This document shows positions 16,714-21,788 of a stretch of DNA of 64,000 nucleotides, piece after piece (within the stretch, counting starts at the first letter, position 1; each line of letters opens with the position of its first letter). Position numbers and translations under genes: made by a program. Below the pieces are notes generated by a model. It did not search any database. It was not told where the DNA came from and worked only from the letters and a program-made list of their open reading frames with translations. Origin of the DNA: a phage; assembly GCA_037574385.1 (NCBI GenBank), contig GCA_037574385.1_4529.1; one strand, 5' to 3'.

Positions 16714-17994
16714 ATGAGTAAAATCCAAAAATTATTGCGTGAATCTACAACGTCTACTAGCAACTCAATTGGTCGCCCAAATCTTGTTGCTTTGACTCGC
16801 GCTACGACTAAATTAATATATTCTGACATTGTGGCAACACAAAGAACTAATCAACCTGTTGCTGCTTTTTATGGTATTAAATATCTTAACCCAGACAACG
16901 AATTAACGTTTAAAACTGGTGCTACTTATGCCGGCGAAGTTGGATATGTAGACCGAGAAAAAATTACTGAACTCACAGAAGAATCAAAAGTCACACTAAA
17001 TAAAGGCGATTTTTTCAAATATAATAATATCGTCTATAAAGTGTTAGAAGATACACCATTTGCAGATATTCAAGAAAGTGATCTAGAATTAGCTCTTCAG
17101 ATTGCAGTCGTTCATTTAAAGGTACGGTTATTTTCAGATGCAGCGGTGACAAGCAAATTTGAAAGCTCTGGTAGCGAAATTTCTGATGCAAGATTCCAAA
17201 TTAATAAATGGCAAACTTCGGTCAAATCTCGTAAACTTAAAACCGGTCTCACGGTTGAATTAGCGCAAGATTTGGAAGCGAATGGATTTGATGCCCCTAA
17301 CTTCTTAGAAGATTTGCTTGCTACTGAAATGGCTGATGAAATTAATAAAGATATTCTTCAGTCTTTAATTACTGTATCGAAACGTTATAAAGTTACTGGA
17401 ATTACTGACACCGGATTTATTGACTTGAGCTATGCATCCGCTCCAGAAGCAGGTCGTTCGTTATATCGAATGGTGTGTGAAATGGTATCACACATTCAAA
17501 AAGAGTCAACTTATACTGCGACGTTTTGTGTAGCTTCAGCTCGTGCAGCTGCTATTCTTGCTGCTTCAGGTTGGTTAAAACATAAACCAGAAGATGATAA
17601 GTATCTTTCACAAAATGCTTACGGGTTCTTAGCTAATGGTTTACCGCTTTATTGCGATACTAACAGCCCATTAGATTATGTGATCGTTGGCGTAGTAGAA
17701 AATATCGGTGAAAAAGAAATTGTTGGATCAATTTTCTATGCCCCGTATACAGAAGGTCTCGACTTAGATGACCCGGAACATGTTGGTGCATTTAAAGTTG
17801 TAGTTGATCCAGAAAGCTTGCAACCGTCTATTGGTTTATTGGTTAGATACGCTTTATCTGCGAATCCTTACACAGTAGCAAAAGATGAAAAAGAAGCGAG
17901 AATAATTGATGGCGGGGACATGGATAAAATGGCGGGACGTTCGGACTTGTCTGTTTTACTTGGTGTTAAATTGCCTAAAATTATTATAGATTAA
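16714..17994 (+). CDS. 24: capsid vertex protein gp24
   Basis: 426 aa, gp23 paralogue; synteny. Confidence 0.95.
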   Translation: MSKIQKLLRESTTSTSNSIGRPNLVALTRATTKLIYSDIVATQRTNQPVAAFYGIKYLNPDNELTFKTGATYAGEVGYVDREKITELTEESKVTLNKGDFFKYNNIVYKVLEDTPFADIQESDLELALQIAVVHLKVRLFSDAAVTSKFESSGSEISDARFQINKWQTSVKSRKLKTGLTVELAQDLEANGFDAPNFLEDLLATEMADEINKDILQSLITVSKRYKVTGITDTGFIDLSYASAPEAGRSLYRMVCEMVSHIQKESTYTATFCVASARAAAILAASGWLKHKPEDDKYLSQNAYGFLANGLPLYCDTNSPLDYVIVGVVENIGEKEIVGSIFYAPYTEGLDLDDPEHVGAFKVVVDPESLQPSIGLLVRYALSANPYTVAKDEKEARIIDGGDMDKMAGRSDLSVLLGVKLPKIIID

Positions 17995-18024: not shown

Positions 18025-19032
18025 TTATGATACTAATTCAATCCATGCAGGACGCAGAACATCTTGCACCATTCGGACTAATTCTTTCTTAACAAGATTC
18101 GGATTATCAGATGATGTTAATACAATACCTTCACGAGAAGTTTCTTCCAGAATATCTTGAACAGTCAATCCCATCACTTTGCCAAAATCTTTTGACGTTA
18201 CAGTCCCAATCTTAGAAATAACATTATTAACAGGATTTAATGTAACATAACAAGCTAGAACATCAAGCAAGTTTTTGTCAATTTCAGTTAATGGAACCCG
18301 GGTTTTAATAGGCTTATCAGACTTTTTCTTTTCACTGAATTTAGAGTTCTTGCACTTAATCGCTACACGAGTACCGTTTGGCAGCCATTTAGGGAAACAA
18401 GGCTTCAGAACATAACCTTCTGCCGTATTATCGCCAATAACATTAGCATCAAATACGCAATTATTTGCTTCGACAAGGTCTTCTGATGCAGTAGCGTTAT
18501 AAGCGGCTAAGACGGAATCAAGGTCGTTTGGAATCATGATAAGAGCATCAAATGTTCCACGTCCAAGCATTGGTGCCATTTTAAAACCAAACGTATTACA
18601 TAAATCTTGCATTTCGTAATCACTCATGTAATAAGTATCACCGCTTTCCGTGTTTATGATGATATCGAATACATAGAAATCTTTTTCACCGTAGTCAACA
18701 CCTTTCTGAATTCCACCACCAGCGAATTCACCAAAGACTTGATATGTCACCGGCACTGAAGTTGAAATACTGCCCATGACTTCTTGAACGCCTTTAATAG
18801 CTTTATCATACTTTTTGAGTACTATTTCATAGCCATAAAAATCTTCTGCTGGAAGAATAGGGCCTGTGCGCTTGGCGCATGTGACGTTGTCACGTTCAAT
18901 TATTAACGAGAAGTTAGTCCCATGGATTTTCTCACGTGCTACCCAAACACCAGTAGTCAAACCGTTAGTGTAGAGTTTTTCAATAAACTTAGAGTTGTAG
19001 TGGTTTTCAAGACTGCTGTATTTCTTAAACAT
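18025..19032 (-). CDS. rnlB: RNA ligase 2
   Basis: 335 aa; near-identical N-terminus to T4 Rnl2 including KIHGTN adenylation motif. Confidence 0.96.
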
Positions 19033-19123
19033 AAATCACCATTATAAATAATAATATCAAAATAATTAGCAGAGACTCTATCTCCGACCCGATGTTTAAT
19101 TTGAATGGATAGAACCTAGATTC

Positions 19124-19149
19124 ATTATACCATCAAAAAATGTAAAGCA
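19124..19149 (-). promoter_or_regulatory. middle-type promoter (MotA box TGCTTTA + extended -10 TGGTATAAT) for rnlB
   Basis: Minus strand reads aTGCTTTAcattttttgaTGgTATAAT. Confidence 0.55.
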
Positions 19150-19151
19150 TA

Positions 19152-19403
19152 TTAGAACTTGATTTCTATCCAATGTCCATCACGTTGGTCGTGATTAATT
19201 TTGTACTGAAAGCCATTATCACGTAACCACTGCCCGACTTGCTCTGTGATAGTTAAATCATTCTTTGATGGATAGTACGTGAATTGTGTCTGGCCTTTGT
19301 CAGCGGCTTTCTCTGCCATCACAGAGAAGTTAGTAATAAAATCACTCAACAAATTGGCTTTAGCGGCCAGAGCCCTTTCTCTTAATTCCTGTGCAAAACT
19401 CAT
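19152..19403 (-). CDS. hypothetical protein (83 aa)
   Basis: ORF coupled to upstream gene by ATGA overlap; in the variable 24-hoc interval. Confidence 0.6.
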   Translation of the reverse strand: MSFAQELRERALAAKANLLSDFITNFSVMAEKAADKGQTQFTYYPSKNDLTITEQVGQWLRDNGFQYKINHDQRDGHWIEIKF

Positions 19404-19600
19404 TTCTTCACCTTTTTGTTAATCAAACGTTTACGGTATACAACTTTTTCTTTTGCTTTAAACTTTGACCGAGCTGTCTCGGCTTTAGTCCATAGTAATC
19501 CAACTTCTTTAGGTTGTAAACCGATTTTTTGAGCAATTTCTACGAATGAAAATCCTGCCTCATGTAATGTATAAACTTCAACTTCAGCTCTCATAATCAA
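19400..19600 (-). CDS. small HTH protein resembling sigma-70 region 4 (66 aa)
   Basis: FSFVEIAQKIGLQPKEVGLLWTKAETARSK resembles region-4 type helix-turn-helix; Lys-rich C-terminus. Confidence 0.55.
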   Translation of the reverse strand: MIMRAEVEVYTLHEAGFSFVEIAQKIGLQPKEVGLLWTKAETARSKFKAKEKVVYRKRLINKKVKK

Positions 19601-19674
19601 TCCAGTGTTATTTGGTTTGTGCCATTATATACATCAATCTCAAGTTGTGTTTTATATGCTTTAAAACGAAGAAA

Positions 19675-19688
19675 GGGGCCGAAGCCCC
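19675..19688 (-). terminator. intrinsic terminator GGGGC-UUCG-GCCCC + U-rich tail downstream of hoc
   Basis: GC stem with UUCG loop 6 nt after hoc stop, followed on the minus strand by UUUCUUCGUUUU. Confidence 0.75.
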
Positions 19689-19694
19689 TTACGA

Positions 19695-21110
19695 TTATGG
19701 ATATGTATAAATGATACCAGTTTCTAGCGCAGTTTTATGGATGATGTATCCATTACGTGATTCTTGAACATCAACTTCTGGATAGTCTTTCATCATCTTC
19801 TGAAGAGTGTAACGATGCAGGTAGTATTTACTATCTGGATCGTCAATTTTCCAATCTTTACCTTCTTCAGTCATTTTTTGGATTTCATCCATAACCCACC
19901 AACCACACCAGATGTAAGCTGAAGTACGGTGTGGAAGAGGATGAACATAAGGTAGTTCACCTTCTGGTTCAATTGGAGTCCGTTCAGCAATAACAACTTC
20001 AGCGGTTGAACTAATTGTCTTTGAAGTATAGTTATCTTTAGTTAATACTGCTTCAACTTTAATTGTATGAGTACCAGCTGAGGAGGTATCAATACTGTAA
20101 GTATTAGTAGAATTACTTTCTGCTACGTTGTCTTTCTTCCAAGAATACACAATATTAGTATCACCTGGAGCACCAGTAACAGATGCTGTTAAAGTTGCAG
20201 TTCCACCAACAGTAGTATTAACTGATGGCGGAGATAAAGAAATGGTGGCACTATTAAATGTCGCATTATTAGTTACTACTGTTGCTTCTGCTGAAATTTC
20301 TTTTGTAACATAATTTGTTGCAGAAACAGATACGGTGCATTTAAGAGTTTTACTTCCTACCTCGGTTGGAGTGAATTTATACGTAGCAGAAGTTGCATCC
20401 GGAATATTACTGTCATCCATTGACCACTGGAATGATGTAGTAGCACCTGAAGGTGCACCAGAGACATTTGCAGTTAAAGTAATAGGAACACCAAAGACTG
20501 TAGTCGGAGACTCAGGCGTAATTTTTAGTGTTGAAGAATTAGCCTTTTTATTTACAGTCAAAGAAACCGCTGATGATTCTACTGTTTTATCAACGTAATC
20601 AGTTGCAGTCACTGTGACGGAGCAAGTTATAGACTTAGTTCCTTCAGATGTTGGTGTATATTCAAAGGTTGATTGCTTTTGACCATCAACAGCGACCCCG
20701 TCAACTTTCCATGTATAAGCAATAGCAGCACCACTAGGTTGATTGCTTACATTAGCAGTGAATGTTGTTGCTGTTCCAATTTCTACTGCAGCCGGAGAAG
20801 CCGGAGTAACAGCGACGGTAGAATTATTTTCTTTCTTATTAACAGTGATAGTTGTTGATGCTTCAGCTATTTCCGGATCTCCTGCGGAAAGTGTATTAGT
20901 TGCAACCACTTTAATTTTTTTTGTTCCTGCCGGAGAAGCAAGAGTATAATCCATTGTAGCAGCCGTAGACTCCTGTGCTATATCATCTACAGTCCAGACG
21001 TATGTAATAGTACCATCTGGAGTTTCACCTGCAGGTGTAGCAGTGAATGTTTGTGAACCTCCAATAACCCCTGTAGGAGTTAAAGGAGATAATGTGACAG
21101 TGAATGTCAT
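19695..21110 (-). CDS. hoc: highly immunogenic outer capsid protein Hoc, four Ig-like domains
   Basis: 471 aa; four ~90-aa Thr/Ser-rich Ig-like repeats plus T4 Hoc-like C-terminal capsid-binding module ending YTYP. Confidence 0.9.
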   Translation of the reverse strand: MTFTVTLSPLTPTGVIGGSQTFTATPAGETPDGTITYVWTVDDIAQESTAATMDYTLASPAGTKKIKVVATNTLSAGDPEIAEASTTITVNKKENNSTVAVTPASPAAVEIGTATTFTANVSNQPSGAAIAYTWKVDGVAVDGQKQSTFEYTPTSEGTKSITCSVTVTATDYVDKTVESSAVSLTVNKKANSSTLKITPESPTTVFGVPITLTANVSGAPSGATTSFQWSMDDSNIPDATSATYKFTPTEVGSKTLKCTVSVSATNYVTKEISAEATVVTNNATFNSATISLSPPSVNTTVGGTATLTASVTGAPGDTNIVYSWKKDNVAESNSTNTYSIDTSSAGTHTIKVEAVLTKDNYTSKTISSTAEVVIAERTPIEPEGELPYVHPLPHRTSAYIWCGWWVMDEIQKMTEEGKDWKIDDPDSKYYLHRYTLQKMMKDYPEVDVQESRNGYIIHKTALETGIIYTYP

Positions 21111-21119
21111 AAGTTATCC

Positions 21120-21788
21120 TTATTTTAATGTTACGAAAGAAGAATTACGAGTTTCACGAATTAGAACTGATCCATCGCGATTAATATAATAAATTAAGCT
21201 AAATAATGTTTGGTGAGCAGAAGCGTGCACAAAACTGGTTGGGCGAGATTTCCAATCAGGTGTTTCGGCTATCCATTGATAAATCCACCAAGGAACAGTA
21301 ACATATCCTAGGCCTTTGCCTAATTTAATGAGTGTAGGACTAAAATTTTCAGGCAGAACAAATTTTACTTCTTTATTTACCTCTGTCTCAGGCTCCTTTT
21401 CAGATTCAACAACCTGAGTAATTGCTTCTTCGAATTTATCATGGTCGAATTCTTTTTCTTGTTCGACAACTTCTAATACTTCAACTTGTTCTGTTGGAGA
21501 ATCAAACAACAGAATAGCTTCTTCTTTAACTTCTTCGTTGGTGAAATTAACACCGTCCACATCATCTGCGGCAGTAATTAAATCGGTTATAGATAATCCA
21601 TCAGTTTCAGGTAACGGTTCATCAGCCAGTGCGTTAAGAGCTTCTTCGATATCAATAACAATATTATCGAATGATTTTGTTTTCTTAACACTAATGCCAA
21701 ATTGTTTCGCATATTCGAACAGTTTAGCTTTGGCTTCCTTTTTATCAGAAAGAGCACGCAACTCTTCAATATAGTCTTTATCGATCAT
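21120..21788 (-). CDS. inh: inhibitor of prohead protease Inh
   Basis: 222 aa; position between hoc and uvsW as in T4. Confidence 0.8.
   Translation of the reverse strand: MIDKDYIEELRALSDKKEAKAKLFEYAKQFGISVKKTKSFDNIVIDIEEALNALADEPLPETDGLSITDLITAADDVDGVNFTNEEVKEEAILLFDSPTEQVEVLEVVEQEKEFDHDKFEEAITQVVESEKEPETEVNKEVKFVLPENFSPTLIKLGKGLGYVTVPWWIYQWIAETPDWKSRPTSFVHASAHQTLFSLIYYINRDGSVLIRETRNSSFVTLK

Follow-up and report, generated by a model that had tools for sequence, protein, structure and literature searches.

The 64,000-nucleotide stretch of DNA analyzed here (contig GCA_037574385.1_4529.1 of the GenBank assembly GCA_037574385.1), henceforth the window, belongs to an RB69-like (Mosigvirus) T4-type phage and encodes on its minus strand, at 19400-19594, a 64-residue protein (plus stop codon) that is 100% identical to gp24.3 of RB69, the ortholog of the T4 gene 24.3 product. 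Our analysis points to a small helix-turn-helix domain, comparable to region 4 of the sigma factors, which is followed by an invariant basic arm that constitutes the signature of the family. Upstream of the gene lie inh (21120-21788) and hoc (19695-21110), and downstream of it lie 24.2 (19152-19403) and rnlB (18025-19032), all on the minus strand, with gene 24 (16714-17994) on the plus strand beyond them. This order agrees with that annotated in T4 and RB69, where the two small open reading frames (ORFs) are named 24.3 and 24.2 and labeled "conserved hypothetical". Over the 3.2 kb surrounding the gene, identity is 98% with Shigella phage ESh27 and Escherichia phage phiC120, and 96.4% with RB69.

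The original prediction, made without database searches, had described a stand-alone helix-turn-helix mini-protein of 66 residues resembling sigma-70 region 4. An ORF with the sequence it quoted is indeed present at 19400-19600; it lies on the minus strand, which had been left unstated, and counts 66 codons if read from the TTG at 19600. This TTG appears to be a mechanical ORF start, and the ATG at 19594, giving the 64-residue form, is the probable start codon because a Shine-Dalgarno-like GGA triplet (19601-19603, minus strand, as read from the sequence) is placed 6 nucleotides upstream of the ATG but directly against the TTG, the RB69 annotation has the same 195-nucleotide coding sequence, and the Pfam profile match begins at this position (residue 3 of the 66-residue form). 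T4 carries GAG where the window has the GGA.

The window protein is a member of the Pfam family DUF2774 (PF11242; E-value 6.9e-31, 106.7 bits against a gathering cut-off of 29.2), aligning with profile positions 1-63 of 63, and of phrog_1566 (E-value 9e-31), both catalogued as being of unknown function. In addition to this full-length match, it shares with T4 gp24.3 the same place between hoc and rnlB/gene 24, and its identity to the T4-group orthologs is 59-65%. This catalogued but uncharacterized family, gp24.3/DUF2774, had been overlooked in the original prediction. Translated searches (tblastn) recovered homologs in 1,083 phage records, every one of them T4-type, with the named hosts being mostly Escherichia, Klebsiella, Shigella, Enterobacter, Yersinia, Salmonella, Serratia and Citrobacter, and Pseudomonas in a single record. 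A profile search across 5.8 billion proteins yielded 130 DUF2774 clusters with sizes of 55-167 residues, and wherever their members reside on long contigs, these are phage genomes of 160-175 kb. The names attached to these clusters are hypothetical throughout, barring two obvious mis-annotations. Wrong names carried by DUF2774 proteins in public records are "DNA primase-helicase subunit" (Yersinia phage vB_YenM_P8 and Enterobacter phage fGh-Ecl01) and, in a record from JGI, "cyanate lyase". Comparison of gp24.3 and gp24.2 with the PADLOC models of defense and anti-defense proteins returned 0 families at E-value <= 1. The ORF is a real gene and far beyond chance, given the full-length DUF2774 match and the breadth of its homologs, the fixation of motif residues while synonymous codons vary (see below), and the classification of the T4 ortholog, at the RNA as well as the protein level, in time-resolved omics.

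An exhaustive HMMER scan of 1.84 billion representative sequences added to the family only proteins with tandem helix-turn-helix repeats, which align to residues 6-39 and whose best Pfam match is Sigma70_r4, with HTH_7, HTH_23 and HTH_38 close behind. Four of these (P0004, P0016, P0019 and P0025), with lengths of 457-836 residues and 4-8 or more tandem sigma-4-like repeats, represent, outside phages, the closest relatives in sequence to the DUF2774 helix-turn-helix, and two of the four terminate in homing-endonuclease-associated repeats (PF18780).

The AlphaFold2 model of gp24.3, built on a 25-sequence alignment, has a mean predicted local distance difference test score (pLDDT) of 88.5 and contains helices at residues 3-12, 17-24 and 28-47, followed by a tail (48-64) predicted to be extended with a pLDDT of about 70. 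Residues 3-47 (19454-19588, minus strand) form in this model a three-helix domain of the sigma-4/LuxR-like type, in which the long helix 3 (28-47) takes the recognition position. I20, A21, G25 and V31 match the canonical helix-turn-helix pattern, and the family consensus has polar or basic residues where helix 3 is exposed (S/T at 27, K/Q at 29, K/Q at 33 and K at 37). A Foldseek search of the PDB with this model gave nothing at E-value <= 0.001; among its leading entries an archaeal Lrp/AsnC regulator is intermingled with sigma factors, regulators of the LuxR type and the helix-turn-helix of the IstA transposase. The top structural matches are DNA-binding helix-turn-helix domains throughout, several of them solved on DNA, and include sigma-E region 4 with the -35 element (PDB: 2h27), SigW region 4 with DNA, RcsB, TraR and NarL. 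Profile searches of PDB sequences gave only marginal matches, namely IstA (0.04), VirB (0.06) and RpoE (0.08). Comparison of the family alignment, using hhalign, with 11 reference helix-turn-helix domains, whose sequences may contain small errors, placed Escherichia coli sigma-E region 4 first with a probability of 45% and an in-register alignment spanning residues 9-41. NarL (7%), GerE (4%) and the remaining references (3% or less) followed, and the alignment with RpoD region 4 was out of register. That this T4-type phage encodes a stand-alone mini-protein with a helix-turn-helix is thus confirmed by the AlphaFold2 model and the fold searches, at the level of a predicted structure.

The defining feature of the family lies beyond this domain. 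Across the 128 family sequences over which conservation and charge were computed, E49 and the residues V52, Y53, R54, K55 and R56 are 95-99% conserved and belong to a C-terminal (R/K)-E-K-V-V-Y-R-K-R motif at residues 48-56, whose invariant part, the arm E49-K-V-V-Y-R-K-R56, is encoded at 19427-19450 on the minus strand and is extended in the model with a pLDDT of about 70. The conserved core of the helix-turn-helix itself comprises E12, G14, F17, I20, A21 and A41. A basic stripe, consisting of R/K42, K44, K46, R/K48 and R54-K55-R56, continues from helix 3 into the arm, and residues 42-64 carry a mean net charge of +7.1 +/- 2.0. The original prediction had noted a Lys-rich tail, and the C-terminal end L57-K64 (19403-19426, minus strand) is indeed Lys-rich and basic; however, it is variable, and it is the preceding VVYRKR arm that characterizes the family. 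Among 21 distinct loci the codons of the arm motif differ synonymously (GTT/GTC/GTA/GTG; CGT/AGA/CGG/CGC/CGA; TAT/TAC), and selection therefore acts on the protein and not on a DNA element. Conservation of VVYRKR as a DNA or RNA element was accordingly rejected, with no Rfam match found near threshold. Gp24.3 represents an already catalogued family with a fold of an ordinary type, for which the fold assignment and the recognition of the VVYRKR arm as its signature are new.

Several copies of the gene depart from the regular architecture. In the T4 reference strain (NC_000866, 109915-110085), 24.3 lacks 33 nucleotides that close T4-like phages possess, an in-frame deletion flanked by CTCGAG direct repeats, as seen by comparing the T4 locus (L001, 2916-3086) with locus L008 (4001-4204). 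The deletion takes out 11 residues of helix 3 and spares the VVYRKR tail; therefore, T4 may be a poor model for gp24.3. In Escherichia phage Bp7 (L006, 3001-3169) DUF2774 is split over two frames (residues 5-45 and 28-60), through a frameshift or a sequencing error, and the record annotates just a 53-residue ORF. A 193-residue ORF (L013, 3992-4573; IMGVR_UViG_650627040_000001) has DUF2774 fused in frame to the downstream ORF, a part which in its close relative L014 is a separate 117-residue gene, which points either to a natural fusion or to an error in sequencing. Klebsiella phage vB_Kpn_AM_K4 (L005, 2800-3303, in a 288-kb record) has a 167-residue ORF with two DUF2774 copies and a nonsense tail. 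The two copies have the same amino acids and differ at synonymous sites, and the tandem probably arose when two strains were assembled into a chimera. It was rejected as evidence for dimerization in view of the identical copies with their synonymous differences, the oversized record and the nonsense tail.

With regard to expression, a hairpin (GGGGCTTCGGCCCC followed by a T run; 19673-19690, minus strand) forms the hoc terminator that parts late hoc from 24.3. Hoc itself, with Ig/PKD-like repeats, is 471 residues long in the window as against 376 in T4, and its length differs widely among related loci. Between this hairpin and 24.3, a TATAAT -10-like hexamer (19624-19629, minus strand) is conserved in the window, RB69 and T4; no good -35 hexamer accompanies it. 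It is probably the pre-replicative promoter of 24.3-24.2. The same intergenic position in other genera displays GTTTACA-17-TAAGAT, or a TGCTTTA box 12 nucleotides upstream of a -10-like hexamer, elements similar to the consensus sequences of the early and the MotA-dependent middle promoters of T4. In T4, a time-resolved omics study, which sorts genes by transcriptome-based and proteome-based classification, lists 24.3, 24.2 and rnlB all as "early-RNA, middle-protein" (PMC9697503, supplementary table). The 24.3 gene is located amid late head genes yet expressed before replication.

The downstream gene 24.2 (phrog_2416) encodes 83 residues, and its start overlaps the 24.3 stop codon in an ATGA (19400-19403, minus strand). 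The coupling reported in the original prediction is therefore real, yet the partner is not conserved across the family, and the arrangement reflects ordinary T4 gene packing rather than a two-gene module maintained in the family. In other phages the DUF2774 stop frequently lies within a downstream ORF, with overlaps of 1-35 nucleotides and differing partners in which no homology to 24.2 could be detected (hhalign below 2%), and recognizable 24.2 is confined to the T4, RB69 and Marfa types along with two other lineages. Given that 24.2 is found only in some loci and the overlapping ORFs have no detectable homology to it, a conserved 24.3-24.2 module of the toxin-antitoxin-like or sigma/anti-sigma-like kind was rejected. 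At six loci (L014, L015, L027, L021, L024 and L007) fast-evolving ORFs of 94-145 residues, a second set that takes the place of 24.2 in many phages, occupy the 24.2 position, and these share a C-terminal beta-hairpin-like pattern (e.g. QLEVKFTRGGEYKFRIVP) and likewise lack detectable homology to 24.2.

The DUF2774 gene is invariably located in the interval from hoc/inh to rnlB/gene 24. In L024-L026 rnlB was not found between it and gene 24, and in PspYZU05 the region is rearranged with the DUF2774 gene and rnlB apart, on which grounds an obligatory 24.3-rnlB link was rejected. The spacer between 24.2 and rnlB (19033-19151) is 119 nucleotides long in the window phage and RB69 as against 9 in T4, and contains a terminator-like hairpin (19070-19086, minus strand) detected by a consensus scan only. 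Because of this longer spacer with its hairpin, 24.3-24.2 may be partly insulated from rnlB in the RB69-type phages.

Comparison with better-known helix-turn-helix systems delimits the affinities of gp24.3. With sigma region 4 it shares the fold, that is a helix-turn-helix with a long C-terminal recognition helix, and its best hhalign match is to an extracytoplasmic function (ECF) sigma factor, so that to this extent the original prediction stands. Membership of the sigma family is another matter: the window protein gave nothing at E-value <= 1 against Pfam Sigma70_r4 (PF04545/PF08281), r4_2 matches were sub-threshold in 4/25 relatives (best E-value 0.023), and GerE (PF00196) reached at best 0.0029, in 2/25 relatives, without attaining Pfam membership. 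The N-terminal helix of region 4.1, which completes the pocket for the beta-flap tip, has no counterpart in the three-helix model; gp24.3 starts two residues before the equivalent of the second region 4 helix, and the sigma-E alignment opens at that helix. The sigma-E residues R171, S172, F175 and R176, presumably those contacting the -35 element, align by hhalign to gp24.3 G32, L33, T36 and K37, and are not conserved in the family, where these positions are small (A/G/M) or variable. In sigma factors region 4 is part of a polypeptide with region 2, whereas gp24.3 is a stand-alone protein, and neither the HMMER scan nor the 130 family clusters contained a longer homolog with region 2. Sigma factors also lack the invariant basic C-terminal arm.

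The LuxR/NarL-type domains score almost level with sigma region 4 by structure. The LuxR/NarL/GerE domains, however, have a fourth, dimerization helix after the recognition helix, in place of which gp24.3 has a tail modeled as extended, and the proteins bearing them possess a receiver or ligand domain that gp24.3 lacks. In Hin recombinase and the homeodomains, a helix-turn-helix that is small and monomeric is accompanied by a short arm of Arg and Lys residues, which lies in the minor groove. In gp24.3 the arm likewise lies beside the recognition helix, but is C-terminal, and its contact with DNA would be a matter of analogy; hhalign detected no sequence relationship to these domains (probability below 3%). 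The sigma mimic PhyR comprises region 2-like and region 4-like parts together with a receiver domain and has a known anti-sigma partner, and T4 Srd and Srh are proposed sigma decoys; unlike PhyR, gp24.3 has no region 2. The NUMOD-type and homing-endonuclease Pfam families gave nothing at E-value <= 1 for gp24.3 or its relatives, and no nuclease fusion occurs in the 130 clusters. A clamp-binding role for the C-terminal peptide was rejected on the general ground that the clamp motifs of T4 are acidic/hydrophobic. On the whole, gp24.3 is sigma-region-4-like at the level of the fold, with a signal that is shared with LuxR-type domains and falls short of family membership. The original interpretation is thus partly supported: the fold is as proposed, and mimicry of region 4, though compatible with it, appears unlikely.

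The reading that we prefer, with a probability of about 0.45, is that gp24.3 is an accessory pre-replicative nucleic-acid-binding protein comprising a helix-turn-helix and a basic arm. It would be made before replication in enterobacterial T4-type phages, from its own promoter just 3' of the hoc terminator, and its two parts, the compact three-helix domain of the sigma-region-4/LuxR type and the E-K-V-V-Y-R-K-R arm with its variable Lys/Arg-rich end, would bind nucleic acid directly, most probably DNA. The long helix 3 might be inserted in the major groove, with the arm running along the adjacent backbone or the minor groove in the manner of Hin recombinase and the homeodomains, and the protein could thereby influence transcription, or some other DNA transaction, at an early stage of infection. 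In favor of this reading are the DUF2774 and RB69 matches, the confident three-helix model with its DNA-binding structural matches, the canonical helix-turn-helix register, the basic stripe and positive charge of the tail, the protein-level selection on the arm, and the expression class of T4 24.3 together with the early-type or MotA-type promoter elements present upstream in several genera. Several observations weigh against it. The helix-turn-helix domain is near-neutral, with a mean charge of -0.3, and within it position 32 is small and positions 33, 36 and 37 are variable in the family, such that G32, L33, T36 and K37 of the window protein seem poorly suited to reading bases. Conservation peaks in the arm and not in the recognition helix, which would also fit a protein or an RNA partner. 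The loss of 11 helix 3 residues in T4 suggests that the protein may not depend on a complete helix 3, or that the gene may be dispensable in the laboratory. Further, no candidate operator for gp24.3 was identified, and a literature search found no paper on the DUF2774/gp24.3 family.

Those same properties bear on the alternatives. The absence of -35-reading residues would be expected if gp24.3 had no need to read DNA and instead acted as a mimic or decoy of sigma region 4 at the beta-flap tip, AsiA or Rsd, tuning the early-to-middle transcription switch. AsiA and MotA act early in T4 infection, with which the early expression of the gene coincides, and hhalign ranks an ECF sigma region 4 first. 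However, the first region 4 helix, itself part of the flap-tip pocket, has no counterpart, LuxR/NarL domains match nearly equally, the Pfam sigma matches are all below threshold, and the invariant part of the protein is an arm foreign to sigma factors, for which reasons we consider such mimicry unlikely. The prominence of the arm, the most conserved element while the helix surface is variable, would be accommodated if VVYRKR were a short linear motif docking on a conserved host or phage protein, for instance by beta-strand addition, with the helix-turn-helix serving as a scaffold or dimerization unit. The alternation of hydrophobic and basic residues in the arm, its predicted extended conformation and the non-basic nature of the helix-turn-helix domain are consistent with such an adaptor; nevertheless, the uniformly basic flanks of the arm are more typical of nucleic-acid binding, and no co-conserved neighbor gene was seen at the examined loci, so that this proposal too seems improbable.

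The richness of the arm in arginine and lysine would equally suit RNA, and since 24.3, 24.2 and rnlB adjoin and share an expression class in T4, gp24.3 might be an RNA-directed factor of this early unit that assists or targets RNA ligase 2. The force of the adjacency is weak, as T4-type genomes generally keep their gene order, and it breaks down in L024-L026, where rnlB is not beside the DUF2774 gene, and in PspYZU05, where the genes are separated and rearranged. With many loci lacking 24.2, and the gp24.2 model being built on a 3-sequence alignment, we regard this as quite improbable. That gp24.3 is the functionless, decaying remnant of a mobile-element DNA-binding module (from a homing endonuclease or a transposase, for example) could be entertained from its nearest non-phage relatives, the tandem arrays that in two cases end in homing-endonuclease-associated repeats, from the IS21-family IstA helix-turn-helix being the best single-domain match among solved structures, from the location of the T4 region between segD and segE, and from the apparent lesions, namely the T4 deletion and the Bp7 frameshift. 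Yet the gene is intact, full-length and syntenic in >1,000 genomes, its arm is under strong purifying selection at the protein level, it has promoter elements of its own and a T4 ortholog with a protein expression class, and NUMOD and nuclease families are absent among its matches at E-value <= 1, all of which render decay highly improbable.

T4 has been the model for phage takeover of host transcription, which proceeds largely via sigma-70 region 4 through AsiA, MotA and gp33. Being conserved, early-made and region-4-like in T4-type phages, gp24.3 may reasonably be regarded as a candidate accessory factor that has been overlooked. The bolder possibility that it is a free-standing sigma-region-4 module acting on RNA polymerase, either as a decoy that would compete with sigma-70 region 4 or shield it (through the beta-flap, AsiA or Rsd) or as a detachable DNA anchor tethered via VVYRKR, appears quite unlikely, but if true would make it an unrecognized player in the early-to-middle transcription switch. 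If it is an ordinary small DNA-binding regulator, the gain would be limited to improved annotation of roughly a thousand phage genomes. In either case, a previously uncharacterized family becomes testable, with a defined fold, an eight-residue motif, and DNA, the beta-flap, AsiA, Rsd and RNA as candidate partners.
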